Shown here piece by piece: positions 9,991 through 61,077 of a stretch of DNA of 64,000 nucleotides (positions within the stretch are counted from its first letter, which is position 1; each line of letters opens with the position of its first letter). A model generated the notes under the pieces. It made no database searches. It worked only from the letters and a program-made list of their open reading frames with translations, and was not told the DNA's origin. Position numbers and translations under genes: made by a program. Source of the stretch: Candidatus Kapaibacterium sp. (lineage in GTDB: Bacteria; Bacteroidota; Ignavibacteria; Kapaibacteriales; UBA2268); contig OY761611.1 in NCBI GenBank assembly GCA_963664875.1, positions 3,232,001 through 3,296,000 on the forward strand. Direction: 5' to 3'.

Positions 9991-10020
9991 GATTATGGAA
10001 AAAAATGGAATAGGTGATTG

Positions 10021-10674
10021 ATGGAAATTTTTAGTGAAGAAAACCCTCTTAGAATTATATTAGCTGATGACCACGAAGTAGTCCGAGCAGGTTTGCGTAG
10101 GATACTGTCAATTGATAAATCTATAAAAATCATGGGTGAAGCCTCTAACGGTGCAGAAGCAGTCGAGCTGGTAAAATATCACAAACCTGATGTGGCTCTT
10201 CTGGATATACTTATGCCAGTGCAATCAGGAATAGAAGCAACTGAGGCAATCAAAAAATTAGTACCAGAGACATTGATTCTGATGTTGACTGCCTTTGAAG
10301 ATTCGCAACACGTAGAGCTTGCTGTGGCAGCAGGTGCTGACGGATATCTAACTAAAGATATCGACGCCAAAGAGCTTGTTCGCTCTATACACAGACTAAT
10401 CAAAGGCGAAAGGGTATTCAGCAAAAATATAATCAATATAATACAGAAGAAGTATATACCCGATTACGACACAACACCCGAAGCGATAGTAATCACAAAA
10501 CGTGAGCAGCAGGTACTTAATTTGGTTGCGGTCGGCAAAACTTCAGCAGAAATAGCAGATGAATTAAATGTTTCAATAAGGACTGTAGAATCACACAGAT
10601 ATAATCTGATGCAAAAACTCGGAGTAAAAAACACTGCAGGATTAGTTAGGTATGCTGTACTTAAAAGTACTTAG
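10021..10674 (+). CDS. NarL/FixJ-family response regulator (REC + LuxR HTH)
   Basis: ILADDHEVVRAG, LLDILMP, GYLTK; ITKREQQVL...TSAEIADELNVSIRTVESHRYNLMQKL. Confidence 0.95.
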   Translation: MEIFSEENPLRIILADDHEVVRAGLRRILSIDKSIKIMGEASNGAEAVELVKYHKPDVALLDILMPVQSGIEATEAIKKLVPETLILMLTAFEDSQHVELAVAAGADGYLTKDIDAKELVRSIHRLIKGERVFSKNIINIIQKKYIPDYDTTPEAIVITKREQQVLNLVAVGKTSAEIADELNVSIRTVESHRYNLMQKLGVKNTAGLVRYAVLKST

Positions 10675-10888: not shown

Positions 10889-12376
10889 ATGAATAAGATA
10901 TTTACAGCTTTTATATTGTCTTTTTTTATGAGTGCATTGGCACATTCGCAGACGGAAAATGTAGGGATAGGCACTAACTCTCCGGACAATTCCGCCGTGT
11001 TGCATGTAGCTTTTGATGCCATCACCGGACCAAAAGGTTTGCTTATTCCTCGCATGTCCACTGCTCAAAGAACGTCAATTCCGGCACCTTTAGCAAACGG
11101 ACTTCTAATCTTTAATACTGATAATAATCAATTCGAATTTTACAACTCGTCAACAACAAGTTGGTTGCCTTTGCTAAGTACAAGTAATTTGGCCCTCCCT
11201 TCAGGTAATATTTTTGTCGGCAACGGATCAAATATTGCAACTGCAGTTTCTATGAGTGGCGACGCCGTGATTACAAATACAGGTGTGCTGACCATTCAGG
11301 ATAATTCAATCGACGGTAGCGATATTTCTATAGCTGGCGAAGCACTTGGCTCTTTAGCATATTATAATGGTACCGACTGGGTTACTCTTGCTGCAGGGAA
11401 TAATGGGGACTTACTTGCTGTTTCTGCAGGCGTACCCGCATGGCAGAATGATAATTCCGTATCTGCTACTCTCAGTGCAGGTAATATATATGTCGGTAAC
11501 GCAACAAATGTTGCCACCGGAGTCGCAATGAGTGGCGATATTTTAATGGATGCAACCGGGCTTACAACTATTCAGGATGGTTCAGTTGATGGTAATGATT
11601 TGAGTTTGGCAGCTCAGGCGAGTGGTTCTCTCACTTACTATAACGGGACAGAATGGGTAACTCTTGGAGTAGGTACAGATGGACAGTTTCTTTCTTTGTC
11701 AGGTGGCGGTGTTCCTGTCTGGGCAGATGTTGCAGGCGGGAGTGGAAGCTTAAATGATGCATATACAAACGGACAGTCTATAACCTTGGCTCCTGCAAAT
11801 GGGAGTGTAGTTATAGCCGGTACTCTCGATGGTGATGCTGCACTTGAGCTTTCTAACAATGGTACAAATGGTATTGGTTTATTAGTAACCGACGGACTTT
11901 CAAGGTTTGGCAATACATATACAGTTACTCAGGCTACAGGCACAGGAGATTTAGTAGTTGATAATGTTTTAGAAGTTGGTGCTGATGTTTATCTTCCCAA
12001 TACTCAAGTTGCACCAAATTTAAATAACGTGTCAATAGTAGTTGATAACGTAACCGGTATTTTATACAAAGAAGTTTCTTCTCGTCGCTATAAAGATAAT
12101 ATCAAAGAATATAAATTTGCTTTCGATAGAGTTTTAGATGCATCTGTGAAAGAATATACCATAAAAGGTAGCAAAGCAAAGCAGATTGGTCTTATTGCGG
12201 AAGAGTTGGACTCACTTGGGCTCAAATACCTCGTTGCCTACGACAAAGACGGCAGACCTGATGCGGTTCATTACTCTAAAGTGTCTTTATATCTATTAGA
12301 AGTAGTAAAACAACAGCAAAAAGAAATAGAATCTTTACGCTCAGAAATAGAAAGTATCAAAGAAAAGATTAAATAG
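10889..12376 (+). CDS. Secreted tail-fibre-like protein with C-terminal S74 intramolecular chaperone domain
   Basis: Signal peptide (AHS|Q), VGIGTNSPD..KGLLIPRM head, two ~85-aa repeats, C-terminal SSRRYKDNI..IGLIAEEL..VHYSK..LLEVVKQQQKEIESL coiled coil. No T9SS CTD. Confidence 0.8.
   Translation: MNKIFTAFILSFFMSALAHSQTENVGIGTNSPDNSAVLHVAFDAITGPKGLLIPRMSTAQRTSIPAPLANGLLIFNTDNNQFEFYNSSTTSWLPLLSTSNLALPSGNIFVGNGSNIATAVSMSGDAVITNTGVLTIQDNSIDGSDISIAGEALGSLAYYNGTDWVTLAAGNNGDLLAVSAGVPAWQNDNSVSATLSAGNIYVGNATNVATGVAMSGDILMDATGLTTIQDGSVDGNDLSLAAQASGSLTYYNGTEWVTLGVGTDGQFLSLSGGGVPVWADVAGGSGSLNDAYTNGQSITLAPANGSVVIAGTLDGDAALELSNNGTNGIGLLVTDGLSRFGNTYTVTQATGTGDLVVDNVLEVGADVYLPNTQVAPNLNNVSIVVDNVTGILYKEVSSRRYKDNIKEYKFAFDRVLDASVKEYTIKGSKAKQIGLIAEELDSLGLKYLVAYDKDGRPDAVHYSKVSLYLLEVVKQQQKEIESLRSEIESIKEKIK
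11195..11722 (+). repeat. Two intragenic ~85-aa repeats in the fibre protein
   Basis: LPSGNIFVGNGSNIATAVSMSGD..TIQD.S.DG.D....GSL.YYNGT.WVTL..G..G..L....GVP.W occurs starting at about 11195 and about 11471. Confidence 0.85.
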
Positions 12377-12398
12377 TACTTTTTGCACAAAAAAAAAT

Positions 12399-15300
12399 AT
12401 GCTAAAAAACAAAATAATATATATAATCATTATTTTGCTTATGCCTTTAGGTTTTCTCCAAGGCCAGAGCAATTTGATAAATCTTGGAAATAACGCCGTT
12501 GTTTCCGTGAGGGATAATGCCCTTATAAAAGTCAATGGCAATATAGTTGTTTCCACAGGTGCTGCTTTGACTGAAACTGGAGACAGCCGTATAAATGTAA
12601 CAGGTGACCTTGAAAATAACGGAACAATAGACTCCGATGCCGGCGAAATATCGTTTGTTGGTGCAGGCGATAGTGAAATCAAAGGAAGTGTCTCGCCAAA
12701 TTTGAATGATGTAACTTTAAATAAAGACAACTCTACAGACAATCTTTTTCTTGATAACAATGCAAATCTTACCGGAGATTTATCTGTAAATTCCGGTATT
12801 TTCCAGTTTGTCAATACTCAGGCAAGAGCACTCGATGTAGATGGGAGCTTGTCCATAGCGGCTGCAGGTCAGATAAATGTGCAGTCTTCTTTCAGGACGC
12901 ACAATTTCAATCTCGCAGGCAATTTGACTAACAACGGCATTTTAGACTTCCATGTTTTAAATGGCAACGTAACTCTCACTTTTGATGGCTCAGGAAATTC
13001 TATTATATCGGGTACGGGAGCTACAACTGATTTTGCATCCATTATTGTCAATAAGGCAAATCCTACTGACGAGGTACAGGTATCTCCTGCTGGTCAAAAT
13101 TTGACTAATTTCAATGCGATAGATGGATTTCTTACTTTGACACAGGGTATATTCCATTTTCTTGGTCAAGGTGTACTTTCCTTTACGAATTCGTTTTTTA
13201 CTCCGTCTGCCAATCTTTATTATGTACCTTCAGGTAGTGGACTTTGGATTGAAAATACAGGAGTAACTGTTTCTGCTCAAGATGCATCTTTAGTTCTTGG
13301 TGGATTGCTCCGCATGAATGGTGGTAACTTTAATGTTGGTGCCGGTAGCTCAGAAAGAAGTATATTTTATACCGACGGTTCAGAGTTGCATTTAGAAGCA
13401 GGGAATATATATATAAGTAATGCATTATGCCGTGATTTACTTCAGGATAATTCTGCAATTACTTTTACAATGTCGGGTGGCGACTTAAGCCTTGGCTATA
13501 ACAGGGCTGTTGTGAATACCCGTGCAATATTCGATATAGGCTATTCAAATTCGACATTCAACTGGTCAGGTGGTGATATTACCTTACCATTGAATTCAGG
13601 TATTTTTGCAAATGGCGATTTTTATGTAAAAACTGTAAACGGTACCGTAACAGGCGGTAGATTAGTAATCGAATCAGCCACTGCAAACGACCTTTTGCAA
13701 CAGTTCTCCATAAACAGCGATATGCCTATAGGCGAATTGCTAATGACTACAGATAATAACCCAAGAGTTGATTTATTAGATGACTTGGTTGTGCTGGGTA
13801 ATGTTACATTAACCAATAGAGCTATAAGAGCTTCTTCTTATTCTCTTACCGTTGGTGGACAGTGGATAAATAATTCTGCAACTCCGGCTTCATTTGATTA
13901 CGGCTCGGGGAATGTAATCTTTAACGGTTCAACAGATCAGACCATAGGCGGTTCACAAAGTACTGATTTTAATCAGCTTTCTGCCAACAAAACCGGTGGA
14001 AACCTTATTCTAAATCATGATGTGAATATTGCTTCTGCTTTGAGATTGGTTTCGAATACTATCTTAGATATGCAGTCAAATGATATTACTATTGCTCAGG
14101 GAGCTGATATCTTTTCAGATTTTTCTACAAATCAGGATTTTTCTGACACTAAATATATTATGAATTCAGGTGGTGCAACAGGTGGTAGGCTTATAAGAAA
14201 TCTTCAGAACAATCCTACTCTCCCTATGTCCGAGTTTATAATATTCCCTGTTGGTACTCCCGGGGCATATACATTTGCATGGGTCAGACTTTTAAGCGGT
14301 ACTTACAATTCTAATCCGGGAATTATAGTCCGACCGATAGCACAAGAGCATCCGCAAGTAAAGAAAAACAATGTCTCGCTCACAAAGTACTGGGAAATTT
14401 CTACATTTGGTAATTTCTCGCCCGGAGTAGAGGGCACTACACTAAGATTCCTTTATGATCAGGCAGAAGTGCAGGGCTCAGAAGGTAACTATCACATTAT
14501 CAAGTACCTTGGTGGTGGCTGGGACTTTGATCCGGCTTTGAGTAATAATATTGATTTTGGTAATAATTTTATCAAACCTGAACGATTTTCTAATGATATT
14601 TCAGGGGATTGGACTGCGGGCGAAGAAGACGCAGTAGCCGCAAAATATTACAGCATTGCTGATGGCAACTTCAGCGATCCTAATACATGGTCTCGAACTT
14701 CTTATGGTGATTTGACTCCTGCTACGACTGCACCAAACAGTAATACAGATTTGGTATTTATCGGAGATGGGAAAACAGTTACTCTTACTGCAAATACTTC
14801 GGCTGCAAGAAGAATTCAAATCGACAGTACCGGTACTCTAATGTGCAATGACTATTTAGTAAGTTCAACTGTAGATACTTTACTACTGAAAGCAGGTGGC
14901 GGCATTGGTATTGGACATTCCGGTAGTATTGCATTATCTGCAAATGACGGTAATGTACGTGCAGGTTACAGATTCTACAGCGATGATGCAATGTACATTT
15001 TTACCGGTAACAATAACCAAAGTGTAAGAGATATTCCTGCGAGAGTAAGTGCATTAGTATTAAATAAGACTCAAAACTCAAATATTGTTACCTTGAATAA
15101 GAGTATCGTTATAGGCGACTCTTTAATCATTAACGAAGGTACTTTAGATCAGGTTAATGACAGCTACTTTATAGATGGCGAAGCCCCGGGTAAATTCTTT
15201 ACTATGCGTGGCGGAACTCTTATACTTAAAGATGAATTTCCAACTAACTACCTTCCTGCAACTATGGAAGGCGGTACGCTTGATTTCTTCGGGATTTCCG

Positions 15301-18300
15301 GCATCAATGTTCCGAGCAATACCAGCAGTCCTGCTGTTTTAAGATACAATAATCTGACTTTCAGAGGTAACAGAGGTTATAATAAAATTACCTTTAGTCC
15401 TTCTGGTCAAATCAATATTGCCGGAAATCTAAGTATCACCGGAGCAACATTTTCCAACTTCCCTGAGACATGGATTGCTACAAACGGCTCGACCATTGCA
15501 TTTATCGGTGACGGCAATCAGAATATACCAAGACTTTCAGGATTAAATAATCAATGGGGAAGATTGAATTACTATAATCTTGTTATTGGCGGAACAGGTG
15601 TAAAAACTATCAATGATAATATTGATTATGTAGTTACAAATAATCTTACCATCAATTCTGCCACTTTAAGAATGGCAAATGGTGGAAACGAATTAGAAGT
15701 TTACGGGAACTGGTTAAATACCGGTGGTGGTTTTGATTATGGAAGCAATCAGACCGTTATATTTAAAACTATAAGCGGCGACGAAAACACTATTGCTCCG
15801 AACAATGTTCCATTCTACAGAGTTGAAATTGACGGTGCAGGTACTGCAAGATTTATTGATGAAATGACCGTTGAAAATGAGATTCAAATCAATTCCGGTG
15901 CTACTTTCGCAGGCGGTAATGCTGCAACCTTACATGTACTTGGGTTGTGGGATAATAATGGTAATCAATTCTCTCCGGGCAATTCGACTGTTTCATTCGA
16001 TGGTAATGCTGCCCAGATTATAGATATAGCAAACTCAACAGAAGAAAAATTTTATAATTTGACAATTAATTCCGGAAACAATGTAGGAGCTTTTACAAAT
16101 GGTACTCCTACTGCAAACAGACTTTGGGTAGAAAACAATCTTCATTTGGAGCGAGGTTATCTATATTTACCAAATTCAGATGATTATATAAGAGTTGATG
16201 GCAACGCTACCCGCAATGCAACCAATAACAGCTCTGCTTTTGTGCATGGTAATTACAGACAATATATTGAAAGAGATGCTGCCACTTATTTCATTCCTGT
16301 AGGTTACGAAGCAGGAACTGATGCATTTACCGGAATTGAATTAGAAATGACCGGCACAGGTGGCACAGAAGGATATTTGAATATTTATACTGACAATGTA
16401 GCTGCTAACTCACCTCGATTCAATGAAATAGACAGGAAATGGGAAATAACGATTCCAACCGGCTCTACTTTTGACCTTGGGGTTAGAAATTATGATGTGA
16501 TTTTTAATTTCCATCCTAATGATGCTGTAGGATTCAATACTGCTGTGTTTGAGACAAGAAGAAGAACTGACGGTATTAACTGGATAGCTCCAAATACCGG
16601 GGTTAGAACTGCAACTTCAACTGAGTCTCTAAATAATAATACTCTTGCCGCTATTGGTGGAGTTACAGAATTTATTGTAGGTGAATCATCTTATTCAATC
16701 TTCTATTCTGTTAATAATGGTAACTGGTCTAATCCTGCTACATGGTCAACAGTTGGTTGGGGAGGTGCTCCTGAGGCAGTTGTTACTCCATTATCTACAG
16801 ACAGCATTAGGATTGCAGATGGTTATACTGTAACATTAGATGTCAATTTTACTATAGACATTGACAAAGCGGTAGTGGTTGAAACTGCAGGTTTGACAAA
16901 TACTCCCGGCAAGTTAGAATTAGGGACAAATCAGATAAATGGTACAGGTGCATTTGTTGTCAAATCCGGTGGTATTCTCGGAATAGGCGATGCAAATGGT
17001 GTTACAGCAGCTTCAGCAAGTGGAAATATCAGAACTTCTATAAGAGATTACAACTACAACAATGCAAATAAATCATATTTTGTATATAACGGAAATGTAG
17101 CGCAGGTAACAGGTGACGGGATTCCCGATGTTGTTGGCGGATTAGTCGCAAATTCTTCAGTGGGAGTTACTCTATCTAAAGCTGTTGCTGTAGCCGATAG
17201 CTTCCTTATTCAATCGAATTATTTAGATGCAAGTGCTTCTAATTACAAACTTACGATAGGTGCGAACTGGATAAACCAAGGCACTTTTGTTCCTCGAGCC
17301 GGCACTGTCGAATTTAACGGTTCTGTCGGAAAAGAGATTACAAATACAAATATCGAAACATTTTATAATCTGATTATCAATAAAGCATCCGGAAATGTTA
17401 CTATCACTGACAACAGTGTTACTGTAACTAACAATCTAACCTTTACCAAAGGCAACTTAGATGCTCGAACTTACAGTCAGTTTGTAACTATAGATAATGG
17501 AGCAACTGTAAACAGAACCTCCGGTCATGTTGATGGAGAACTAAGAAAGTACTTAGCAACGGGCGATTTGCCGGTAGCTACCTACGAAGTAGGATTTGGT
17601 ACAGATTATACTCCTGTTGTTATTGATGTAAACGGTACGGGAGGCACTGCAGGTTTCGCAGGAGTAATATCCAATGACGGAGATCATCCTCAGTTTTTAA
17701 CTGCCGCACTCAACCCATCCAAAAATGTCCAGAGATATTGGTCTGTGAATACATACGGTTTTGACCTCGGTGCAGGCAGAACTTATGATATTACTTTAAA
17801 TTATCTTTATCCTGATGATATTAGAGGCGGGGCAGATCCTAATCTCTTTGAAGTGAGAAGATATAATCTCGGCTGGAATATACCGACTACAGGTATTAGA
17901 ACCAACTCATCAACACAGGGAACAGGAATAACTGATTTTGGTATAGATTTTATGGTAGGCGAACCGGGTGGAAGCGGTAGAGTGTTTTATTCTATTGCCT
18001 CAGGCGCTTGGAATACTGTCGGGAACTGGTCTGAAATAGGCTACGGCGGTGTAGCTTCTGCTAATTTCCCTGACTTAAATACAGATATTGTTTTTATAGG
18101 TGATAACAAATATATCGATTTGGATGCAAGCAGACAGCTGACTGCACTTACAGTTGAGAACGGTGGGAAGATTAATTTCTCCACGAATGTAATTACAGGC
18201 ACACAGTTTACATTGAAAAAAGATGGTATCATCGAAGTCGCTTCTGCTTCAGGCATTACAAATGCAACAGCTGCAGGCAATGTTCAAACTTCCATAAGAA

Positions 18301-25187: not shown

Positions 25188-25310
25188 ATAGTATAACAAT
25201 GACTAAGATATGATTTAAAGATATTAAGATATACAATAAACTAACAATACGTACTTTTGACAAGAGTCTGTATTATTACTGTAAGTATTTGAAATCAAAA
25301 GGATTAGAAA

Positions 25311-25355
25311 TAAGTAGAACTACTGAATTTTAAATAGAAAACTATCGTTACATTG
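25311..25355 (+). promoter_or_regulatory. Putative internal promoter/operator: TAAGTA-N4-TACTGA plus TACATTG
   Basis: Imperfect copy of the 10699 palindrome, with a -7-like box 38 nt downstream of its start (39 nt at the first site). Confidence 0.45.
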
Positions 25356-25407
25356 TATTACGTATAAAAACCGAAGTTGACTAATTTTACGTATATATTC
25401 AATAAAT

Positions 25408-25414
25408 AGGGAGA
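25408..25414 (+). promoter_or_regulatory. Shine-Dalgarno-like RBS (AGGGAGA)
   Basis: 6 nt upstream of ATG 25421. Confidence 0.6.
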
Positions 25415-25420
25415 TATCCT

Positions 25421-27709
25421 ATGAAATTTTTTACAAAAAACTGGCGAAGGTACAGTGCTATAGCTGCTTTAGCACTTGGTCTTCTCGTAGTTGACGGCCA
25501 GTCTCAGACTTTGAAAAATCAAAGTACTGGTCGTATCGTTAATAATGGTTCAATCAAGTTTACTTGTGAGGCAGGTCAATTCCAAAATGCAGCAGATCCT
25601 ACAGTTGCTACCACTTTGGTAAACAATGGTACAATTGAATTTGAAGAAAATGCATCTGCAACAGGTAAATTACAATTTACAGATTTGACCGGTGCAGCTG
25701 CAGGCAATTCTTTTGGATTGGCACCTACAAGCAGAGTACCCGGTACTGTTATTTTCAATGGTGGTGGTGCTCAGGTAATTCAGTCAGACTTATACTTAAC
25801 CAACTTAGATTTAGGTGGTTCAGGAAATAAGACTTATGATGGCGACATCTATGTTGCAGGAGCTTATACTGTTACTACAGGTACCCCTGTTTACGCCAAT
25901 GCAGGCGGAAGCGGTGGCGGAATGACTTTCTATTATGATGGTGCTACTGATCAGACTATCTATGCAACTGCCGGCGGACACACATACTATAACTTAGGTT
26001 TCTTAGATGCGGGTGTTAAAACTTTAGCCGGTGCTACGCTTGCTACTACAACAAATGACGCAACAATTGGTGGTACTCCTAGTACTCGTGCTTCCGGAAA
26101 TGTTATAATCGATGGTCAGTTAACAGTCAACCATTCTTTACTTCAAGAAGCAGGTGCAGGTAACTTGATTATTGATAATATCACAGATGCAAACACAGGT
26201 ACTGTTCTATTAGCAGGTACTAATGCAGGAACAGGTAACTCACTATTAGAAGCAACTACCAATATCGGAAATGGTGGTGTTTTGAGAACTACAGGTGACG
26301 GTGTTTTGACTGTAGCAACCGGAGCTAATTTGAATGTTAATGCCGGTACATTTAACTTAAATGCAGGTAATGCTGATATTGACGGTACTTTAGCTGCTGC
26401 TGCTACTGCAGGTGTCATTGATGTAGATCAATCAAGAACTTTAACAATATCCGGTACATTTACAAATGCAGGTGATGGCACAAACTTACTGTTTGCTGAT
26501 GAAACAGTAGCAGGTGATGGACTTGCTTCTACAGTAATTTATGATGGCGGTGCGGCTCAAGCTGTTGTTACTACTATCGCATCTAATCCTTATGCTAACT
26601 TGCAGGTAATAAATGCTGGTGCTAAAGTTCCGGGTGGAAATATTTATGTAGCTAACGACTGGACTCTTGGCGATGCTGACTTTGCAATGGGTGCTAACAC
26701 TTTATTTATGACAGATAATGCTGCAACAGCAACATACAATACCGATCACGAGGTTACAGGTCGTATGAATCGTACTATGGGTGTTGGTGGTCCTTTGACA
26801 TTCAACAACTCATCTACAACTGTAGCTGTTACTGCTAATACTGCAAGCTTGACTGACTTGACATTAAATGTTCAACCGGGAGGCTATTCAACAGACGCAA
26901 CTTATTCTGCGCATTATGATGGTACAACTGACGTTGACCGTTTGATTACTTATGATTATTCTCAAACAGCTGCAGACTGGGTAGCTATATTTGAATTTGG
27001 TTACAAGAAAGCTGAAGAACCTGCTTACGCTCCAAATCCAGCTGGTGGTAACTACGACCACACTTCTCTTCGCTTCCGTGAGTTGACAGCTGCTGATGTT
27101 TCTGAAAAAGTTGCAACAGGTTCTGCTACTGGTGACGATTATGCTGCTGCAGTCTTTGCTTCCAGATCATTGCCGGGCATCCAACCGGGTACTGCAACAT
27201 TAGCCCAGATTGATGATCCTGCTCCGTTATTCCTACGTGGCGGTCCAACAACTTTCATCTCTATCACAGATGGTCGTTGGTCTAACCCTAATACTTGGGA
27301 TGAAGGTGCTGAACCTGGACCAGGTGACTTTACAATCATCGCTACAGGTACTCAGGTACACGCAGGTGGTATAGGTTCCGGTGGACGTGACCCTTTTGCA
27401 GGCGATGAAACATACCCTGATGAATTAACAGCTGGCTGTACAGTTCAGACAGGAGCTGCTTTGATCTTTGGTAATAATATCAATCAGAATTTTGCTTTAA
27501 GTACAGGTGCTTCTATGACAATCGAATCAGGTGCAGATGCTGATCCAAATCAGGCAACATTTGCAACATTCTTGTCTTCAACACCTGCATCTTATACTGG
27601 TAGAGGTTTGTTCATCTATGAAGGTACAAACCCAACTGTTTTAAAAACTCCATTATTTGATAACGCCGGTTTATTCTATAACGACGGCGAACTTCAAGTG
27701 TGCGACTAA
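25421..27709 (+). CDS. Secreted 762-aa single-module beta-helix/Ig protein, putative major filament subunit
   Basis: Signal peptide (GQS|Q), Ala/Gly/Thr-rich, one FISITDGRWSNPNTW cap near the C-terminus, ends NDGELQVCD; GGT/GCT/ACT-rich codons. No CTD. Confidence 0.75.
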   Translation: MKFFTKNWRRYSAIAALALGLLVVDGQSQTLKNQSTGRIVNNGSIKFTCEAGQFQNAADPTVATTLVNNGTIEFEENASATGKLQFTDLTGAAAGNSFGLAPTSRVPGTVIFNGGGAQVIQSDLYLTNLDLGGSGNKTYDGDIYVAGAYTVTTGTPVYANAGGSGGGMTFYYDGATDQTIYATAGGHTYYNLGFLDAGVKTLAGATLATTTNDATIGGTPSTRASGNVIIDGQLTVNHSLLQEAGAGNLIIDNITDANTGTVLLAGTNAGTGNSLLEATTNIGNGGVLRTTGDGVLTVATGANLNVNAGTFNLNAGNADIDGTLAAAATAGVIDVDQSRTLTISGTFTNAGDGTNLLFADETVAGDGLASTVIYDGGAAQAVVTTIASNPYANLQVINAGAKVPGGNIYVANDWTLGDADFAMGANTLFMTDNAATATYNTDHEVTGRMNRTMGVGGPLTFNNSSTTVAVTANTASLTDLTLNVQPGGYSTDATYSAHYDGTTDVDRLITYDYSQTAADWVAIFEFGYKKAEEPAYAPNPAGGNYDHTSLRFRELTAADVSEKVATGSATGDDYAAAVFASRSLPGIQPGTATLAQIDDPAPLFLRGGPTTFISITDGRWSNPNTWDEGAEPGPGDFTIIATGTQVHAGGIGSGGRDPFAGDETYPDELTAGCTVQTGAALIFGNNINQNFALSTGASMTIESGADADPNQATFATFLSSTPASYTGRGLFIYEGTNPTVLKTPLFDNAGLFYNDGELQVCD

Positions 27710-27716
27710 TATATTT

Positions 27717-27752
27717 TATAAAGAGGCAAGCCTATCGGCTTGTCTCTTTATA
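27717..27752 (+). terminator. Strong stem-loop after the 762-aa gene (terminator or mRNA stabiliser)
   Basis: 16-bp stem TATAAAGAGGCAAGCC-tatc-GGCTTGTCTCTTTATA with one G-U pair; weak U tract. Confidence 0.7.
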
Positions 27753-27811
27753 TATAATACAAAATATTCATGATTTAAGAACTTTAAAAATATACCAAAA
27801 ATATAGTAAAA

Positions 27812-29911
27812 ATGACTACCCGAATATACATATTGATTTTGATGTTTGTAATGCTTTTTGGCTCTGTTGATGCACAGAGACTTAAAAGCACGGGTACGAT
27901 ACGTAATAACGGAAAAGGCAAGATTAAAGTAGAAGGTGCTCTCCAATCTAAAGATAATGGGGCTGTCATAGAGAACGAAGGCAAAATCATCATAGAGGGC
28001 AATGCTGAAATCAATCAGGACACTCTTGGTGGGTATGTCGAATATAATTGGAATGAAAATGTAGCTTATCAGTATGTACCGTCTTTGCATTATAAAAATG
28101 TGCATTTTTACGGTACAACTAAGAAACTACTGGATACCACCTACAAGAGAAATTTTGTAGCTATGGATACATTTTTTGTGAATAATGATGTGGAGATTCG
28201 TACTGATTCTTCGCATTATATCTATACTCAAGGCAGAGTAACACACAACGGATACATCAATAAAACAAGTCTGAAAGGTAAGCTGATTTACAAAGGCGAC
28301 GAAGTTCAAAATGTGGATGGTAAAGGCGAATACAAAGAGCTTGTTTTAGATAACCCCACATCCGCCAAGGTTATAAATGAGGGTGGCTTTAAAGTGGTTA
28401 CCTCTCTCGAATTGAAACAAGGTGAATTCCAAAATACAGATTCTACTAATTTCATTATGGGCAATAAAAGCAATCTTATCCGACATGTCGGTGCTTCTAT
28501 CGCTTATGAGCCGCAATTAGAAGGGCAACTTTCTGTAACGTACAAAGGTCAGGGCTCGCTTATCACTGGTGCCGAAATACCGAAAGGTACAAACGACCTT
28601 GCAAATCTGGAAATAAGTAATACGGATACTTTGTTTTTAGATAGAAATGTGGATGTGAATGACTCTCTATGGGTCAATGCTAATGTTGTAACAAACGATG
28701 ATACGCTTTCTCTCAGAAACAGAGTTAATCCGTTTTATGGTGCTTCTCCTGATTTAGAGATAGCAGGTAATTTCAGAAGAACTGTCATTGAAGTTGGTGA
28801 CACAATCCTTCTCAATAACAAATACACCTTTGCATTGTTTGAGTCTTTAGAAGACAAAGGCGATGTGGCTGAACTTACATTCCATATTTTACCATTAACT
28901 CAGCCTGATAACGGCAAAAAAAAGGTTAGTAGGCGTATAAATATTTCCGGTAGAGATTTAGCCGGAAATGAAATAGCAGACAAATTTAAAATGCAGTTCC
29001 GTTATGCATGGAGACATGCTCCGGGCGAAGATTATGATGAAACAAATAATCTAAAAGTAAGCGAACTTGTGCTTCAGAGGTGGAAAGATAATAACTGGAT
29101 TAATTTCCAATCCGACGAGCCTTTTATTTTGTCTGATGAATCTTGGGCTTATGGCTTTAGCAGTGTAGTAAATTCTACAGGTGTATTTGCCATAGGCGGG
29201 CCGGACTTCGAGTTGCTTGTTTTCAGAGCTAAAGTAATGCTGGAAGGTGCTTACCGCACCGGTAAATTTGCAACAATGGCTATGGATTTGAATAAGCGAA
29301 ACGAGATTCCATTGACTCCTCCGTCAAATTCTTATCCTTACAATTTAGATCCAAAACTTCCGACCTTGTCAGCAATTCCTGATTCTGTAGTGGACTGGGT
29401 TGTGCTCGAATTTAGAAAAGAAAAAGTAAATGCTGCAGAAAGATTTTTCAAAACTGCGTTTATCCGTTATGACGGTAGTATAGTCGGCATAGACGGCAAA
29501 AACGATATAGTGTTTGATTATGCAGATGGCATAGATTCCGGTGGCGGAGATTATTATGTATTTATTCGTCATAGAAATCACTTAATGCTTAGGTCTAAAA
29601 ATCCGTTACCGATTTACCCTGACAGCAATAACGTACTTTATGATTTCACTTCTAACAGTGATTTGATAGAGGGCGGTGTGCAGTCACTCAAACTGCTTGA
29701 TATTGACAAAGACGGCAATAGACTTTTTGGTTTGCGGGGTGGGTATAAGTTTGACCAAGTCGAAGACGATTTTAGATTCACATTAGATCCGGACAGATTG
29801 GCTGCCTATAAAGAATTTACTCTAATCGGTTATCTTTGGGGCGATTACAATATGGACGGTATAGTAAACACTAAAGATTTTAATATTAGCTGGAATAATA
29901 GACTCAAATAG
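27812..29911 (+). CDS. Secreted beta-helix/Ig protein with VMLEGAY..VVDWV..HRNHL domain and C-terminal dockerin-like EF-hand
   Basis: Signal peptide (VDA|Q); N-terminal two thirds align by eye with the 762-aa protein; ends GDYNMDGIVNTKDFNISWNNRLK. Confidence 0.75.
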   Translation: MTTRIYILILMFVMLFGSVDAQRLKSTGTIRNNGKGKIKVEGALQSKDNGAVIENEGKIIIEGNAEINQDTLGGYVEYNWNENVAYQYVPSLHYKNVHFYGTTKKLLDTTYKRNFVAMDTFFVNNDVEIRTDSSHYIYTQGRVTHNGYINKTSLKGKLIYKGDEVQNVDGKGEYKELVLDNPTSAKVINEGGFKVVTSLELKQGEFQNTDSTNFIMGNKSNLIRHVGASIAYEPQLEGQLSVTYKGQGSLITGAEIPKGTNDLANLEISNTDTLFLDRNVDVNDSLWVNANVVTNDDTLSLRNRVNPFYGASPDLEIAGNFRRTVIEVGDTILLNNKYTFALFESLEDKGDVAELTFHILPLTQPDNGKKKVSRRINISGRDLAGNEIADKFKMQFRYAWRHAPGEDYDETNNLKVSELVLQRWKDNNWINFQSDEPFILSDESWAYGFSSVVNSTGVFAIGGPDFELLVFRAKVMLEGAYRTGKFATMAMDLNKRNEIPLTPPSNSYPYNLDPKLPTLSAIPDSVVDWVVLEFRKEKVNAAERFFKTAFIRYDGSIVGIDGKNDIVFDYADGIDSGGGDYYVFIRHRNHLMLRSKNPLPIYPDSNNVLYDFTSNSDLIEGGVQSLKLLDIDKDGNRLFGLRGGYKFDQVEDDFRFTLDPDRLAAYKEFTLIGYLWGDYNMDGIVNTKDFNISWNNRLK

Positions 29912-29950
29912 AAAAATGAAGCTACAATATCTATTGAGTAATATAATGAA

Positions 29951-31231
29951 ATGAAAAAACTTCTCCTCTACATATTGGCATTTTTTGCATTCATTGGCAG
30001 CTTGCGTTCGCAAGAGCAGGCAGCTTTTGTGCAAATATATAATACATACAGAATATCTTCTGATGTACTCTCTTTCCAATTAATCATGGGTAGAAGCAAT
30101 GAAAACTGGTACAAATTTGCAAACGGCACTTATCAGCTACAGTTTTCAGACGGCTCTCTAATAAATTCGACTTTGTACAGAATCGATTTGATATCATCGG
30201 ATCTTAAGCTTGCAACAGTAGCCGGTGGAGATGATTTGCAAAAAGATGCTTACACGATTGATCCGGTAGTCTTTAATGACAGATTCAGCATTACAATAGT
30301 CGGACCTGAAACATTAGATGATTGTGCTACCATACCTACTGATGAGACAGTGTTGCTCGGCGAATTTCAAATCTCTTCCAAAGATGGTGCGACTGTTCCT
30401 GATGTATTAGTCTGGAAAACACCTTTGCTTTTTTATCAGGCTTGTGCTTACAAAACTGATAAAGATTCACTTGATGGTTTTATCACACGCTTTACCATCG
30501 AGGACAATATAGAGATGCACGACGAAATTTCGTCTTATGTAGATTTTAAAACTGATGATTCTGAGCGGCCTGCCATGCGTCTTGTCGAATTTACTGCACA
30601 GTATGTAGGTGGTAAAAATGTAAAATTAGATTGGAGAACTGACGAAGAAGCATATAACAAAGGCTTTATAGTCAGAAGAGCTCCAAGACCTGATATGTTC
30701 CAGCAGAGCAATGAACTGGTTTATAATCATGAAGTCTCCTCTTTTACTTATGATAATCGTTTGCTTGGAGCCGGCACGACAAAGCAGCCTCAGACTTACG
30801 AATATTATTATGATTCTGTCGAATATAGAGGTGGCGATTATTGCTATGAGTTGCTATATGAAGATTTCGAAGGCAATGTAACTACTTTGGCTTATGCCTG
30901 TGCACCTGTGCCGAATGCAGTAATCGTATATGCAGCACCTTCGGAAAATCCATTTAGAGAATCAACACGAATAGATTATATTGTAGATGATGATGTTACG
31001 ATGACCGTAACAGTCTATGAGCTTGGTGGCAAAGAGATTACCAAACTTTCCGACGAATCAGGTCAATTGTTAGATGGTGTAGTTGTCAAAAAAGGAGAAC
31101 ACAGCACCACCTTTAATGCGTCAGAATTATCATCGCAGGGTATGTATGATGTAATATTTATAGCATATCCGATAGACGACCCATCGGTAGAACTCTCAAG
31201 AGCGGTTGTAAAACTTCAACTAATGAGGTAG
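29951..31231 (+). CDS. T9SS type-A CTD protein with N-terminal cohesin-like beta-sandwich
   Basis: Signal peptide (LRS|Q); MRLVEFTA..VKLDWRT.EE.YNKGF.V.R Ig domain; ENPFRESTRIDY..VYELGGKEI..GMY..KLQLMR sorting domain. The cohesin assignment is inferred. Confidence 0.7.
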   Translation: MKKLLLYILAFFAFIGSLRSQEQAAFVQIYNTYRISSDVLSFQLIMGRSNENWYKFANGTYQLQFSDGSLINSTLYRIDLISSDLKLATVAGGDDLQKDAYTIDPVVFNDRFSITIVGPETLDDCATIPTDETVLLGEFQISSKDGATVPDVLVWKTPLLFYQACAYKTDKDSLDGFITRFTIEDNIEMHDEISSYVDFKTDDSERPAMRLVEFTAQYVGGKNVKLDWRTDEEAYNKGFIVRRAPRPDMFQQSNELVYNHEVSSFTYDNRLLGAGTTKQPQTYEYYYDSVEYRGGDYCYELLYEDFEGNVTTLAYACAPVPNAVIVYAAPSENPFRESTRIDYIVDDDVTMTVTVYELGGKEITKLSDESGQLLDGVVVKKGEHSTTFNASELSSQGMYDVIFIAYPIDDPSVELSRAVVKLQLMR

Positions 31232-31236
31232 CCGGC

Positions 31237-33120
31237 ATGTTGCTCAAAAATATCGCATTATTATTTTTAGTTTTAGCAAGTACTAAGTTACTTGCTATTG
31301 ATTTTATTACTCCGCAAGCAGATGAAACAATAATCGCAGGCAGTACCTATAAGCTGACTTGGGAGGAAAAACCCGGTTCCTCGTACAACTTATTCTACTC
31401 TGAAGACGGCGGTGAAAATTATACCCAAATTGCCGAAAATGTAACTACCAACGAATATGATTGGCAAGTTCCCGAATTGAACGAATTGAATATTAAACTA
31501 CTTTGTGTAGCTAATTATTTTGTAGAACCACAGCTTTTGTATTCAGAAGATTTGCAATCGGGTAGAGTAAACTCCATATCTTATTCAGAAGATGGTAAGC
31601 AAATACTGATTACTACATTTGATAATAATATCTACGTCTATTCTCCAACATTTACGAGAGTGCAAGTCTTTCCGTTCCCTACTTTAGAAACCATTTTTGA
31701 TGCTGATTTCATAGGGCACGGCACAATAATATTTAGTTCCGGTGGCAGAGTATATTCTTTTCAAATAATGGATGGCATACCACATGAAATTGCAGCAGGG
31801 AATTTTGATATAAACGAAAACATAGAAAAACTGGAATATGGCAGTTCTCGTTTGGAAATTGCGGCAGCTTCTTATGACGGATCTTTCAAAGTGATAGATT
31901 ATCTGACAGGTATTGCAAAAAAAAGCTTTAATTCGGTAGATGGGCATGAATTTTATAGCCTGAAATATTCAAAATACGAAAAATACATTGCTGCCGGCGA
32001 TAAGGCAGGCAGAGTTTATATTTATGATTTTGACAATGATGTACTTAGTACAATCGAACCAAAAGTAAATCCAAATATTACATGGAATATCGCAAGAGCT
32101 ATAGATTTCAGTTCAGATAATTCCGAAATAGTAGTTGCCTATGCAGATGGTAGTTTCTCTGTTTATGATAGGTCTTCTCATGCTGAAATAAGAAGCATAG
32201 ATGCACATACTTCACAAATCAGAGCAATAGAATATCATCCGATAGATCAGCACATCTTTGCAGCTTCGATGGATATGACTTTTTCTCAATGGGAGAGCAC
32301 AAAATCTTTACATGTGCCGTCATATACAGGGCAATCTAATATTGATGCCGATTACTCACAAACCGGCGATACTATTGCACTATCAACATATCAGGGTAGT
32401 ATCCAATTTTGGAAAAACTTTGTATCGGATATAGATACTGCAGAAACAGAATTCAATTTGAAATATAAATTGAAAGTTTATTATGATGATTATGCCGTTG
32501 GGTATGACACAAAGCTAAGCATAACGCCTAAAATAGAATATAATCATCAAAATCAAATCCCTTTGCAGGGGATAGATGCAGCAAAAATATATGTCAGAAT
32601 GCCATCAAGGATGCTTTATCCATTGAGCAAAATTACAATCGAAAGAATGGGAGAGAGATTTGCCTTTACTGAAACCATCGGCAAAGATGATAAAGATGAG
32701 AATGTGTTTTTAGCTCTACACAATCCCTACACTTCCATCGATACTCTATTTGTGGACAGCGTGAGCTATAGCGGGTCTAATTTGGAAATAGAGCTACAAA
32801 ACGGAAGCATCATCACTCAAGATAATTGCTTATTGCATCCGTCAAAAATGTATTTTGCAGGCGAAGCTGAGCTAAAGATATATCCTAATCCGGCTGAGAA
32901 TTTCATAAAAATTGACTGCAAACTACCTGAAAATACTTTACACGAATATTACGTGTATGATATAGACGGGAGCGAATTGCCGGCTATGAACGGAGAAATT
33001 GAGCATGATGCCAAGGAAAAAGAAATAAATATCTCAAAACTTTCGAGTGGATTATATACATTTGAGATAGTATCAGAGAGCGGAAAAAAATATTACGCAC
33101 GCTTTTTCATAATAAAATAA
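31237..33120 (+). CDS. WD40-repeat protein with T9SS C-terminal sorting domain
   Basis: N-terminal Ig (YSEDGGENY..YDWQVP), WD-like repeats (AHTSQIRAIEYHP..SMDMTFSQW), CTD IYPNPAENFIKI..LSSGLYTF..RFFIIK. Confidence 0.8.
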   Translation: MLLKNIALLFLVLASTKLLAIDFITPQADETIIAGSTYKLTWEEKPGSSYNLFYSEDGGENYTQIAENVTTNEYDWQVPELNELNIKLLCVANYFVEPQLLYSEDLQSGRVNSISYSEDGKQILITTFDNNIYVYSPTFTRVQVFPFPTLETIFDADFIGHGTIIFSSGGRVYSFQIMDGIPHEIAAGNFDINENIEKLEYGSSRLEIAAASYDGSFKVIDYLTGIAKKSFNSVDGHEFYSLKYSKYEKYIAAGDKAGRVYIYDFDNDVLSTIEPKVNPNITWNIARAIDFSSDNSEIVVAYADGSFSVYDRSSHAEIRSIDAHTSQIRAIEYHPIDQHIFAASMDMTFSQWESTKSLHVPSYTGQSNIDADYSQTGDTIALSTYQGSIQFWKNFVSDIDTAETEFNLKYKLKVYYDDYAVGYDTKLSITPKIEYNHQNQIPLQGIDAAKIYVRMPSRMLYPLSKITIERMGERFAFTETIGKDDKDENVFLALHNPYTSIDTLFVDSVSYSGSNLEIELQNGSIITQDNCLLHPSKMYFAGEAELKIYPNPAENFIKIDCKLPENTLHEYYVYDIDGSELPAMNGEIEHDAKEKEINISKLSSGLYTFEIVSESGKKYYARFFIIK

Positions 33121-33124
33121 AACT

Positions 33125-34558
33125 GTGGGTAGCGTTTTGAGACAAAAGAAGTTAATAAATTCGATAATGATAGTTACTATGATATTCCTATGTGTCTATT
33201 CCGGATTCTCGCAGGCAGATGAAGGTTATGAAAGAGATATAAGAATACTTAAAAGCAACGATACGCTTGTAGTACATAGAAAATTTGGTGATTTTTGGTT
33301 TGGAGCATTTTCAGGCGTATCTCTCAATTCATATTTTGGAGATTTGATCATTAAGCCAAGTGCCGAAGGCTTGATGAATCCTTTTGCTCAAACTACAGTA
33401 TATCCTCCGGGTTCAGGTAGCGGCTTATTTATAGGTGTGATGGGCGAATGGGTGCCTATCAATGAAAACTGGGGGGCTTGGCTAAAGGTGAGGTTTTACG
33501 ACAGCAGATTTAGCTCTACTCAGACTCAAATAGCTACAGACAGCTTAGATACATATTGGAAAGCAGAAACTTCGCTTCAATATATCACAATAAGCCCGGG
33601 AGCGAGATATAATACTTCTATTTCGGGGCTTTATCTTACCGCAGGTCTTGATTTCGAGTTAAATAGCTCTACGGATGTGAAAGTTGGTAAAGCATTTGAA
33701 AATGGCTCTCCTATTGATGAATTAAAGATAGTACAAATTGACAAAGCTAAAGCAAGATATGGGATAAATCTCGGTGTCGGTTACGAATTTGTTATTGCAG
33801 ATATCAACCGAAAATACAGAGCAAGAATATCTCCGTATTTTTCTCTTCATGCCGGTTCTAATATTTTAACAGATTATGGTTCTTCATGGAATGCTGTCAT
33901 GGCGAGAGCCGGTCTGCAAATTAAAATCGGAAAAGACAGGCAGACATTCGACACGCTTCCTTTTAATCCTGCTTATCAAGAGCCTCCTCGCTATTATGCT
34001 TCGGTCAAGTCTGATGCAGGAATACAGGTAGATTTATCAGATTTCAGAAGCACTCTTGTTTCCGCATGGCTGACTCAGGTAGAAGTTCCTGCTATACAAG
34101 AAGAAATCAGAGAAGAACCAATTTTAGATTTGGCAGATGTAAGGTCTGAAAGACCGGAAGAGCAGTTAGTGGTAACTAAGCCGGTACCTGTCCAGAAAAA
34201 AATAGACGTAGTGCCGGGCGATACTGTAAACTTCTCTTTCCGAACTTCTGCATCATCTGAACTTACTACTGACGCAAAAGCATATCTAAATGCAGTAGCA
34301 GAAGTGCTAAAAGGCGATCCTAATAAAATTGTTAGAATAAGAGGTCACTCAGATAACCGTGGTACATTACCTCAAAACACTCAGAGATCAAATGCAAGAG
34401 CAGACGAAGCCAGAAAATATCTAATCAGCCGAGGGGTACCTGCGGGTAGAGTATTTGCTGCAGGGGTCGGTTCTCTTTATCCGATCGGAGATAACAATGT
34501 TGAATCAGGCAGACGAAAAAACAGAAGGATAGAGGTAATAGTTGTAAGTACGAGGTAA
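33125..34558 (+). CDS. OmpA-family outer-membrane protein (N-terminal beta-barrel plus peptidoglycan-binding domain)
   Basis: Amphipathic beta-strands, then IRGHSDNRG..N..RS.ARA, NRRIEV. Start may be ATG 33167. Confidence 0.85.
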   Translation: MGSVLRQKKLINSIMIVTMIFLCVYSGFSQADEGYERDIRILKSNDTLVVHRKFGDFWFGAFSGVSLNSYFGDLIIKPSAEGLMNPFAQTTVYPPGSGSGLFIGVMGEWVPINENWGAWLKVRFYDSRFSSTQTQIATDSLDTYWKAETSLQYITISPGARYNTSISGLYLTAGLDFELNSSTDVKVGKAFENGSPIDELKIVQIDKAKARYGINLGVGYEFVIADINRKYRARISPYFSLHAGSNILTDYGSSWNAVMARAGLQIKIGKDRQTFDTLPFNPAYQEPPRYYASVKSDAGIQVDLSDFRSTLVSAWLTQVEVPAIQEEIREEPILDLADVRSERPEEQLVVTKPVPVQKKIDVVPGDTVNFSFRTSASSELTTDAKAYLNAVAEVLKGDPNKIVRIRGHSDNRGTLPQNTQRSNARADEARKYLISRGVPAGRVFAAGVGSLYPIGDNNVESGRRKNRRIEVIVVSTR

Positions 34559-34639: not shown

Positions 34640-35020
34640 ATGGACAAGACTTTACCTATTTGCATAATTGAAGATAGTGCTCCAATCAGAAAACTTTTTA
34701 GTGCACTTTTAAAAAAATCAGGATATGAAGTAAAAGATTTTGAAGATGCCTTTTCGAGTCTCGAATGGCTCAAAGTGAATAAGGCAATGGGTATTATTAT
34801 GGATATACTTTTGCCGGATATGAACGGTACAGATTTACTTAAAAAAGTTAAAGAAGTACCTGAACATAAAGATACACCGGTAATTGCTGTTACAGGATTT
34901 GCCACAGCAAACGACAAAGAACGCTTTACTAACTTAGGATTTACTTCCTATATAGCTAAGCCGGTTGTTACTGCTACTTTTGTAGATGATGTGCTTAAAG
35001 GTTTTCAGGAAAAAAATTGA
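34640..35020 (+). CDS. Single-domain response regulator (CheY/DivK-like)
   Basis: IIEDS, MDILLPDMNG, VIAVTG, YIAKPV. Confidence 0.9.
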   Translation: MDKTLPICIIEDSAPIRKLFSALLKKSGYEVKDFEDAFSSLEWLKVNKAMGIIMDILLPDMNGTDLLKKVKEVPEHKDTPVIAVTGFATANDKERFTNLGFTSYIAKPVVTATFVDDVLKGFQEKN

Positions 35021-35034
35021 GATAAATCGACAAT

Positions 35035-55820: not shown

Positions 55821-55883
55821 AATGAGAACTCTACTTTTTGCATTTATTTATGTTATGTTTTTGGGTGTGGCTGCGACTTCCAA
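55821..55883 (+). repeat. 63-bp direct repeat (signal-peptide coding), copy 1; copy 2 at 59438-59500
   Basis: 60/63 identical between the starts of paralogs 1 and 2. Confidence 0.95.
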
Positions 55884-61073: not shown

Positions 61074-61077
61074 AAGC

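Follow-up and report, generated by a model that had tools for sequence, protein, structure and literature searches.

A conserved gene cluster of Kapaibacteriales predicted to encode a surface chain of stacked beta-helix rods

Main finding

The genome of Candidatus Kapaibacterium sp. contains a gene cluster whose products probably form a filament. Separately made beta-helix rods would stack into a chain of adapter, shafts and base, likely locked by disulfides and likely fixed at the cell surface by a dockerin-cohesin bond with an anchor. The chain likely serves to attach the cell over long distances to other cells, particles or surfaces. The first-pass annotation had proposed a filament made of the giant protein, n copies of the 762-aa protein and the 699-aa protein. 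A model of the joint, natural gene fusions and Cys pairs all support this proposal, but the polymer does not extend to all relatives: the shaft is missing in one family, fused to the base in another and possibly limited to one copy per chain in a third.

The gene cluster and its products

The cluster spans positions 10889..34558 of the window, by which we mean the whole stretch of 64,000 nt that was analysed (assembly GCA_963664875.1, contig OY761611.1, 3,232,001-3,296,000 of the forward strand; GTDB lineage Bacteria; Bacteroidota; Ignavibacteria; Kapaibacteriales; UBA2268). The whole genome is a single contig with a completeness score of 100%. The features of the cluster are given in Table 1.

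Table 1 Features of the cluster, in window positions
Feature	Position	Strand	Description
Fibre-type protein, 496 aa, candidate tip fibre	10886(10889)..12376	+	C-terminal Peptidase_S74, intramolecular chaperone
Giant adapter, 4262 aa	12399..25187	+	Series of cap / beta-helix / Ig-like modules; C-terminal rung open and ending in Cys
Shaft, 762 aa	25421..27709	+	Single module cut out of phase; open rung at each end
Shaft first rung, acceptor face	25505..25576	+	Mature residues 1-24, including Cys21; predicted interface
Shaft last rung, donor face	27650..27706	+	Mature residues 716-734, including Cys733; predicted interface
Strong hairpin directly 3' of shaft stop codon	27717..27752	+	-24 kcal/mol
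Base, 699 aa	27812..29911	+	Open first rung as in the shaft, then helix and Ig-like part and a 234-aa domain with dockerin-like end
Anchor, 426 aa	29951..31231	+	Cohesin-fold domain, FN3-like domain, T9SS type A-like C-terminal domain
WD40 propeller with T9SS CTD	31237..33120	+	Optional operon passenger
Outer-membrane barrel with OmpA peptidoglycan-binding domain, 477 aa	33125..34558	+	PF13568 E 5e-5, PF00691 E 2e-18

All seven open reading frames are co-oriented, and every motif quoted in the first-pass annotation is present in their translations. Its description of all seven products as secreted fails for the last one, an outer-membrane protein that is possibly a membrane/wall tether. All subunits have Sec-type leaders. 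For the first four (fibre, giant, shaft and base) no other export feature had been noted, and this was borne out: none matched a family of C-terminal sorting domains (CTD) or, by Pfam, an autotransporter barrel, and their signal regions show no lipobox Cys. A CTD is found only on the anchor and the optional WD40 protein.

BLAST among the seven proteins returned nothing beyond self matches, and shaft, base and anchor matched no family and no solved structure at the sequence level. Atlas look-ups for the cluster's proteins led to unnamed clusters only, apart from a weak cohesin lead (0.84, 13% share), and a sigma-70 scan stayed at chance level. In one wastewater metatranscriptome, contigs of a related strain matched the shaft in four listed pieces and the base in two short ones; such contigs are unable to rank genes and were left out of the evidence.

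The fibre protein matched PF13884 (Peptidase_S74; E 8.8e-6, 26.4 bits against a cut-off of 22), and its position in relatives is taken by unrelated fibre-like genes. The giant is built of cap, beta-helix and Ig modules, as had been proposed: it holds seven FYS..W..W caps (residues 750, 1435, 1863, 2288, 3008, 3468 and 3948), its modules are mutually homologous (E down to 1e-45), and it carries a G8-like signal (E 5e-10). Its N-terminus is open and of a type distinct from that of the shaft. In 34 relatives the giant is replaced by a mini adapter (125-170 aa, ~130 aa) with the same C-terminal rung, and the two never occur together in one relative. Self-polymerisation of the adapter was rejected because the N-terminus of the mini adapter is unlike that of the shaft (prob 2.4 by profile comparison).

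The shaft gene is present in a single copy. Its AF2 model (pLDDT 86, pTM 0.82) matched parallel beta-helix folds from residue 1 to ~430 (best Z 13.8, rmsd 4.2, 264 aligned), while Foldseek, with the Ig-like and cap domains not queried separately, gave no match at E<=0.001. Profile comparison corroborated the proposal that the shaft is a circularly permuted giant module: its C-terminal part corresponds to module positions 3-156 (prob 94.5, E 8e-8) and its residues 302-505 to positions 175-376 (prob 92, E 6e-7). By the same method, the giant ends like the shaft, with homologous C-termini (94%, E 1e-7), and the base starts like it, with homologous N-termini (98%, E 9e-14), both as first suggested; overall, base and shaft are homologous at E 5e-25. 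The C-terminal rung motif terminates 5/4706 ORFs in this genome, including the giant and the shaft, and is present in 68/77 shafts (strict regex) and in 0/87 bases. The first-rung motif of the shaft is conserved among relatives, and mature shafts start with Gln in 76/77 cases.

Conservation across the order

The shaft was found in 106/151 genomes of the order and the full-length anchor (E<1e-50) in 110, with both together in 105. These genomes come from wastewater, groundwater, lake and mat among other sources. Gene order was counted in 99 loci fetched from relatives, where it typically runs adapter (giant or mini), shaft, dockerin-ended base, cohesin-fold/T9SS-CTD anchor and barrel. The base was followed by the anchor in 85/85 cases and a separate shaft by the base in 76/82. 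The barrel gene is the conserved last gene (81/99), reduced to ~270 aa in family f2. The WD40 gene, listed initially as a cluster member, is indeed present here but optional (23/99). Nine loci of family f10 have a base and lack a shaft. In other orders of the class, the same chain terminates in a subunit whose first rung is open and which has a CTD-like end of its own. Comparison of relatives showed both the gene order and the termini to be kept in homologous loci, as the proposal of a filament had it.

The predicted head-to-tail joint

Models and sequence comparison predict that shafts stack head to tail via their open end rungs. In complex predictions, a free shaft C-terminus docked onto a full-length shaft, at the first rung, with a score of 0.88, compared with 0.00 for the best control, although beta-helices, whose edges might stack in a non-specific way, were not among the controls. 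The mark for this score is reached by 116/157 solved complexes and 2/215 mismatched pairs. The runs agreed in at least 96% of contacts, with a partner pLDDT of at least 82, in line with the head-to-tail 762:762 interface suggested at the outset; this shaft-shaft joint was the sole joint modelled. The predicted interface comprises acceptor residues 1-21 and 24 and donor residues 716-734. It is in register with pairs of cysteines at the two ends, although the model and these pairs are not independent, as the underlying alignment contains the Cys covariation.

Among 76 shafts, with end zones drawn after the data were seen, Cys was present at both ends in 28, at neither in 45 and at one end only in 3 (lone C-terminal in G023 and G061, lone N-terminal in G128). 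The pairs occur in about 10 clades with offsets of 712-714, 667 or 646-648, mostly in one register. A held-out set comprised 78 shafts below 60% identity, with positions counted from the mature Gln. Here, a first-rung Cys without an internal partner was accompanied by a C-terminal Cys in 12/12 shafts, and one with an internal partner by none in 22/22. Seven of the 19 C-terminal Cys had no first-rung partner; six of these shafts have a Cys at residues 50-96 and one has none. An automated register test, HMM-mapped and with mis-mapped N-termini, matched in 4/12 (null mean 0.57, p 0.0014).

The predicted disulfides would join Cys21 to Cys733 between shafts, and the Cys of the giant to Cys21 of the shaft. 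A matching Cys recurs in the base or adapter in several clades, sometimes as the sole Cys of the base. Meanwhile, in G009 and G020 the only two Cys of the shaft are those at its ends, and the base and adapter tail have none; the base of the present genome also has no Cys. Where base and adapter have no matching Cys, the partner would have to be another shaft, implying a homopolymer. In addition, natural shaft-base fusions join the last rung to the first rung with no linker in 8/8 genomes.

The Cys pairs sit in one polypeptide, and they could be self-caps if the two ends of the shaft met within one molecule or a small closed ring, leaving no open chain. We consider this very unlikely: in the model, the first-rung site is occupied by the free fragment and not by the chain's own C-terminus, the two ends are ~400 residues of helix apart, partner Cys recur in separate proteins and the fusions are linear. 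Modelling excludes self-closure of the shaft only indirectly. The same joints would also be expected of a giant adhesin split over several genes, with one copy per subunit, forming a fixed rod that amounts to a single-chain T9SS adhesin in pieces. Single-chain versions do exist, such as the 3590-aa protein of G236, which combines a cap, helix modules and a CTD-like end, and the shaft-base fusions and shaft-less loci fit this reading as well. Further support comes from family f2, in which genes overlap, no shaft has the end-to-end Cys pair and codon bias gives the shaft no advantage (9/20), so that one shaft per chain is possible there. Likewise, the codon-bias rank of the shaft in this genome is moderate (381 of 1781), which is not like that of a bulk pilin. 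On the other hand, shafts with end-Cys pairs occur where base and adapter have no partner Cys, and a shaft-shaft joint is predicted. In giant-bearing lineages, moreover, there is a hairpin after the shaft and the shaft has the higher codon bias. Hairpins like the one in Table 1 occur in most family-f1 loci, as compared with a lenient control (the 60 nt after the base, often coding sequence), and likely step expression down from shaft to base. The codon bias of the shaft exceeds that of the giant in 28/28 and that of the base in 25/31 comparisons in family f1. We therefore regard the split adhesin as unlikely as a general account, while for family f2 it may still be right.

The putative link to the anchor

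The base was first annotated as ending with a dockerin domain. Its end is dockerin-like, but the first calcium loop is degenerate here, as it is lost in the genus, only the second is kept, and there is no Pfam match for this genome's protein. Dockerin_1 was matched by 12/42 homologues of this end domain (best E 7.4e-6). The top PDB match of the base family was also a dockerin chain, at E 0.4-0.7, which is too weak to stand alone; two better-scoring PDB rows were due to His tags. The anchor was modelled with a pLDDT of 93. Fold comparison of its first domain ranked cohesins at positions 1-4 (Z 11.1-10.7; top rmsd 3.4, 134/144 aligned), while at the sequence level there was no cohesin match and Foldseek returned generic Ig/FN3 tandems only. 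Its last domain resembles the CTD regions of PorU (Z 9.5) and mirolase (Z 8.8). Its earlier assignment as a CTD anchor agrees with this fold and with Por_Secre_tail matches in 25/62 homologues, but the protein itself scored below cut-off (TIGR04183, E 0.016). Structural models and family profiles together suggest that the base is likely tied to the anchor by a dockerin-cohesin pair.

A proposed mechanism of assembly and export

We postulate that the first rung of each shaft or base extends the last rung of the adapter or shaft before it, as predicted by the model and supported by the comparisons, and that each joint rebuilds the cap-helix-Ig module that is covalent within the giant. As shaft would bind shaft, the number of shafts per chain could vary. 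Lacking a donor rung, the base would end the chain on the cell side; the adapter, with an N-terminus of another type, would do so on the far side, and this N-terminus would carry the exchangeable fibre. Assembly would take place in the periplasm, an environment that permits disulfide formation. Led by the anchor and travelling as a passenger of its CTD, the chain would then be threaded through the SprA pore, and PorU would fix the anchor to the surface. These export steps are the weakest of the scheme.

SprA, PorU and four PorV were found in the genome, all over cut-off. The two GldK matches were both below cut-off, and GldM had no match, but the GldM control also matched nowhere. In the literature searched, we found no paper on T9SS export of passengers without a CTD. 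The chain might instead stay in the periplasm or leave by another, unknown route, with the T9SS anchor merely co-regulated or holding a different partner. This would be in keeping with four upstream proteins that have no recognised outer-membrane export signal, with a peptidoglycan-binding barrel protein as the last gene of the operon, and with GldK and GldM not being over cut-off. We judge it improbable, given that base and anchor are adjacent wherever counted, that dockerin-like and cohesin-fold domains lie in these adjacent genes, and that the terminal subunit of other orders has its own CTD-like end. Phage-fibre-like proteins and a 4,000-residue rod would also suit the outside of the cell better.

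The putative surface chain may represent a new class of pilus, a proposal to which we give an even chance. In such a pilus, folded beta-helix rods would complete each other's split module, be locked by disulfides and be exported as signal-less type IX passengers behind a single CTD-bearing anchor, with the length set by the shafts added before the fibre-bearing adapter caps the chain. Judging by the number of rungs, such a filament would be thin, with a repeat of very roughly 10-15 nm. If true, the short list of pilus classes known so far would gain a hitherto undescribed kind of surface filament, conserved across an uncultured environmental order whose surface biology is little known. The type IX system would then export proteins that lack their own signal, a point relevant to how substrates are recognised and threaded. 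Beta-helical proteins as a rule block their ends against polymerising; these would do the reverse, and they would offer a naturally modular rod whose joints are defined and can be cross-linked.

Comparison with known systems

We found no description of this locus in the literature; subscription papers and bioRxiv supplements were outside the search. The cluster had been said to match none of the chaperone-usher, type IV, type V and curli systems. Membership tests for curli, chaperone-usher and type IV systems failed, in agreement with that statement, but the junction does resemble the solenoid augmentation of curli. Chaperone-usher, type IV and Bacteroidetes type V pili follow a tip/shaft/base gene logic with an over-stoichiometric shaft. 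The cluster shares this logic, but is without usher, secretin, lipoprotein precursor or donor-strand pilin domains. Usher (PF00577) and secretin (PF00263) had 0 matches in the genome (controls positive in 1/14 and 6/14), and the cluster's proteins contain no donor-strand pilin domains by Pfam, nor the fimbrillin families or lipobox Cys of Bacteroidetes type V pili. TpsB (PF03865) had no match in the genome, but its control also matched nowhere.

Two curli papers describe CsgA and CsgB with open terminal rungs, head-to-tail beta-solenoid augmentation and a matching minor subunit at the cell (PMC10192328, PMC13721041). The likeness to curli (type VIII secretion) lies in the predicted head-to-tail augmentation through open rungs. 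However, the subunits here are multidomain rods of 700-4,800 aa with pectate-lyase/autotransporter-type helices, whereas those of curli are short amyloid repeats, and cross-joint Cys pairs, dedicated chain ends and a putative dockerin/cohesin tie to T9SS cargo set the cluster further apart. CsgG (PF03783) had 0 matches in the genome (control positive in 4/14), and no curlin repeats were matched by Pfam in the seven proteins.

Type V beta-helical adhesins (Ag43, pertactin, FHA/EtpA) are alike in their parallel beta-helix fold (Z ~9-12.5). Those described so far are monomers whose ends are blocked (capping is discussed in PMC10192328), whereas the cluster has no autotransporter barrel and its open ends are conserved. 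Cellulosomal and non-cellulosomal cohesin-dockerin systems resemble it in the anchor's cohesin fold and the base family's dockerin signature, but here one putative pair, with the first calcium loop lost in the genus, would tether a rod and there is no enzyme scaffold. SprB is a T9SS adhesin of 6497 aa (PMC9251779). With such single-chain adhesins (type B cargo, PorP/PorE partners) the cluster would share the export machine and a very large cargo. Those adhesins carry their own CTD in one chain, whereas CTD-less subunits are here combined with the type A-like CTD of a terminal anchor. Operons that pair T9SS cargo with a barrel and a peptidoglycan binder are also described (PMC12618676).

Subunits of the locus

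Sequence comparisons and structure models suggest that the locus encodes a chain with a repeated shaft, anchored outside. We consider this core model fairly probable as a whole, a grade set by the fact that its steps are not independent.

The seven co-oriented ORFs encode a 496-aa fibre-type protein, a giant adapter, a 762-aa shaft, a 699-aa base, a 426-aa anchor, a 627-aa WD40 protein and a 477-aa barrel-OmpA protein; every length and motif quoted in the first-pass annotation was confirmed. Pfam and NCBIfam searches recognised an S74 chaperone in the fibre-type protein and gave a G8-like signal for the giant; the 627-aa protein matched WD40 and a T9SS C-terminal sorting domain (CTD), the 477-aa protein matched a barrel and OmpA, and no further domain was named in the seven. 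Homologues that carry names are almost all annotated as 'hypothetical protein'.

The giant is built of tandem homologous modules, each with cap, beta-helix and Ig-like parts. Profile comparison bore out the proposal that the shaft is one such module cut out of phase: its C-terminal 150 residues resemble the opening part of a giant module, and its residues 302-505 resemble the later part. The shaft and base have their N-terminal rung (first rung, an open, predicted acceptor face) in common. The C-terminal rung (last rung, an open, predicted donor face) is common to the shaft, the giant and the small adapter of relatives, and its motif ends 5 of the 4706 ORFs in the genome.

The predicted head-to-tail joint

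Family f8 of the same order carries a shaft-base fusion in eight genomes, and in 8/8 the last rung of the shaft is continuous with the first rung of the base. Cysteines near the shaft ends (n = 76) occur at both ends in 28 shafts, at neither in 45, at the C-terminal end only in two and at the N-terminal end only in one. The 28 two-ended shafts represent ten clades; the offset is 712-714 in six of them, 667 in two and 646-648 in two. Since the zones were fixed after the data had been seen, and N-terminal cysteines with a known internal partner were excluded from the count, held-out shafts were tested. These comprised 137 full-length representatives, reduced to 79 rung-ended sequences with <60% identity to the first set and to 78 with a callable mature start. 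Among the 34 with a first-rung cysteine, a C-terminal cysteine was present in 0/22 with an internal partner and in 12/12 without one. The 19 C-terminal cysteines were accompanied by a first-rung cysteine in 12 shafts, by one at residues 50-96 in six and by none in one. A cruder automated test on these shafts matched 4/12 (null mean 0.57). The partner cysteine recurs in base first rungs, where in several cases the base has no other cysteine (families f3 and f4; seven f1 genomes), and in the adapter tail of this genus, G143 and f3.

Complex prediction of the full-length shaft together with a separate fragment made of the shaft's last 158 residues docked that fragment on the first rung, as the proposed stacking of open rungs had it, with a score of 0.88 (best control 0.00); the mark for this score is reached by 116/157 solved complexes and 2/215 mismatched pairs. 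The predicted interface sets shaft residues 1-21 and 24 against fragment residues 716-734 and a patch at 673-680, with contact agreement of at least 96% and partner pLDDT of at least 82. Its register (11:724, 14:727, 17:730) is that of the cysteine pairs 14:727, 13:727, 2:716, 20:733 and 21:733 (mature residues, N-terminal:C-terminal), and the second patch contains the pair 8:675 and adjoins 12:679. This support is coherent but not independent, because the model was built from the same alignment as the cysteine pairs. We regard head-to-tail joints between subunits as very probable.

Likely chain length

In G009 and G020 the sole two cysteines of the shaft lie at its ends, and the base and adapter tail have none; the base of this genome also lacks cysteine. 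The partner of a shaft end cysteine is therefore either another shaft or the same shaft. Closure of the shaft on itself, with the pair within one molecule, is unlikely, since the chain's own C-terminus left the site free in the complex model and the two ends are separated by about 400 residues of helix. In this genome and across most of f1, a strong hairpin lies downstream of the shaft gene. By a codon measure that places EF-Tu and GroEL at the top, the shaft exceeds the giant in 28/28 genomes and, in f1, the base in 25/31. Repeated shafts are likely in this genome.

A long, abundant pilus is disfavoured by the codon rank of the shaft here (381 of 1781) and by family f2, in which genes overlap, the shaft has no codon advantage (9/20) and the end-to-end cysteine pair is absent from the shafts. 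The best fit for this genome is a short chain whose length varies, and a single shaft copy may be the rule in f2.

Proposed anchoring and export

The anchor was modelled with pLDDT 93. Of its three domains, the first has cohesins as its best fold matches (ranks 1-4, Z 11.1), the second resembles FN3, and the third is similar in fold to the CTD regions of both PorU and mirolase. Por_Secre_tail was matched by 25/62 anchor homologues. The dockerin end proposed for the base held in part: the signature occurs in the base family (12/42) and is degenerate in this genus.

The genome encodes SprA, PorU and four PorV, and no secretin, CsgG or usher was found in it. GldM was likewise not found and GldK fell under the cut-off; possibly its T9SS has a divergent or different motor. 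In the accessible text of PMC9251779 and PMC10994853, T9SS transports folded, very large CTD-bearing cargo. We propose that the CTD-less subunits would pass through the pore behind the anchor, an arrangement for which the literature searched offered no precedent. Surface display via the T9SS anchor is probable, and placement of the fibre at the tip of the chain is slightly favoured. For what the barrel-OmpA protein at the end of the locus may do, PorP/PorE-type tethers (PMC12618676) are by analogy no more than a lead.

Relation to known systems

As first proposed, the features that mark membership of the curli, chaperone-usher, type IV and type V systems were not found; the claimed mismatch fails at the joint, which is predicted to work like the solenoid augmentation of curli (PMC10192328 and PMC13721041, as far as accessible). 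As to two-partner secretion and autotransporters, the first four proteins showed no barrel, and PF03865 gave no match either in the genome or in its control. Each part is a known fold; the literature searched, which misses most subscription papers, held no description of their proposed union in one chain.

Distribution and gene order

The shaft is present in 106/151 genomes of the order and a full-length anchor in 110/151, with both in 105 (anchor and joint counts from search tables at E<1e-50). The comparison of loci covered 99 relatives, out of 105 in which the shaft was matched. Gene order is kept, with base then anchor in 85/85 and a separate shaft then base in 76/82; of the six shafts without a downstream base, five are at the end of a contig and the sixth (G058) is solitary. 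Family f10 has a base without a shaft in nine genomes. Upstream of the shaft, 30 genomes have the giant and 34 a mini adapter of 125-170 aa; the two never occur together, and fibre-like genes often stand ahead of them. The giant is unlinked to the locus in some genomes, and in some other relatives no adapter was found.

In G135, G092 and G131 the giant is apparently broken into at least two frames, a split that may reflect assembly errors or decay, and G144 has the locus twice. In two f2 loci (L021, L023) the mini adapter is preceded by an array of at least five fibre-like genes, possibly a set of exchangeable tips; one of these genes encodes a Phage_depo_C domain. The flanking response regulator and receiver/CHASE kinase pair (table) accompany the locus in many relatives and likely regulate it; in five (G009, G011, G020, G028, G035) a regulator gene stands between giant and shaft.

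In 13 sampled genomes from other orders of the class (families f14, f17, f18), most loci combine a giant with between one and three paralogues of the shaft type, which have the same last rung throughout; the terminal subunit of these loci has an open first rung and itself carries a CTD-like end. Where its start is in view, the giant begins with a cap and has no fibre gene ahead in G255, G304, G183 and G344; those of G324 and G397 start differently. In L143 (G324), L145 and L146 as many as four distinct paralogues of the shaft type are arranged in tandem, each ending in a donor rung, possibly an ordered heteropolymer. Outside the class, in the same phylum, compact loci of family f23 encode a 540-aa protein that combines an open first rung with a dockerin, then a CTD protein of about 390 aa; L158 has a fibre-like gene ahead. 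The dockerin/CTD-protein tether may be widespread in Bacteroidota.

Other features of the window

Downstream of an RND efflux operon, three ORFs in a stretch of low GC (0.31-0.32) had no Pfam or NCBIfam match. The 1853-aa T9SS-CTD protein and its paralogues have near-identical C-termini; three paralogues have codon-bias ranks of 9, 11 and 16 (of 1781) and so may be the abundant surface-layer proteins.

Locations of the locus, its neighbours and related features
Feature	Location	Strand
Response regulator gene, upstream of locus	window 10018-10674	
Seven-gene locus	window 10889-34558	+
Receiver and CHASE kinase pair, downstream of locus	window 34640-37293	
1853-aa T9SS-CTD protein	window 43827-49388	-
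ORFs of 1205, 544 and 572 aa	window 55822-62796	+
Paralogues of 1853-aa protein	genome C1 798028-803484, 2692713-2704189	
Compact f23 locus	L158:6470-11416	
Compact f23 locus	L159:9798-12534
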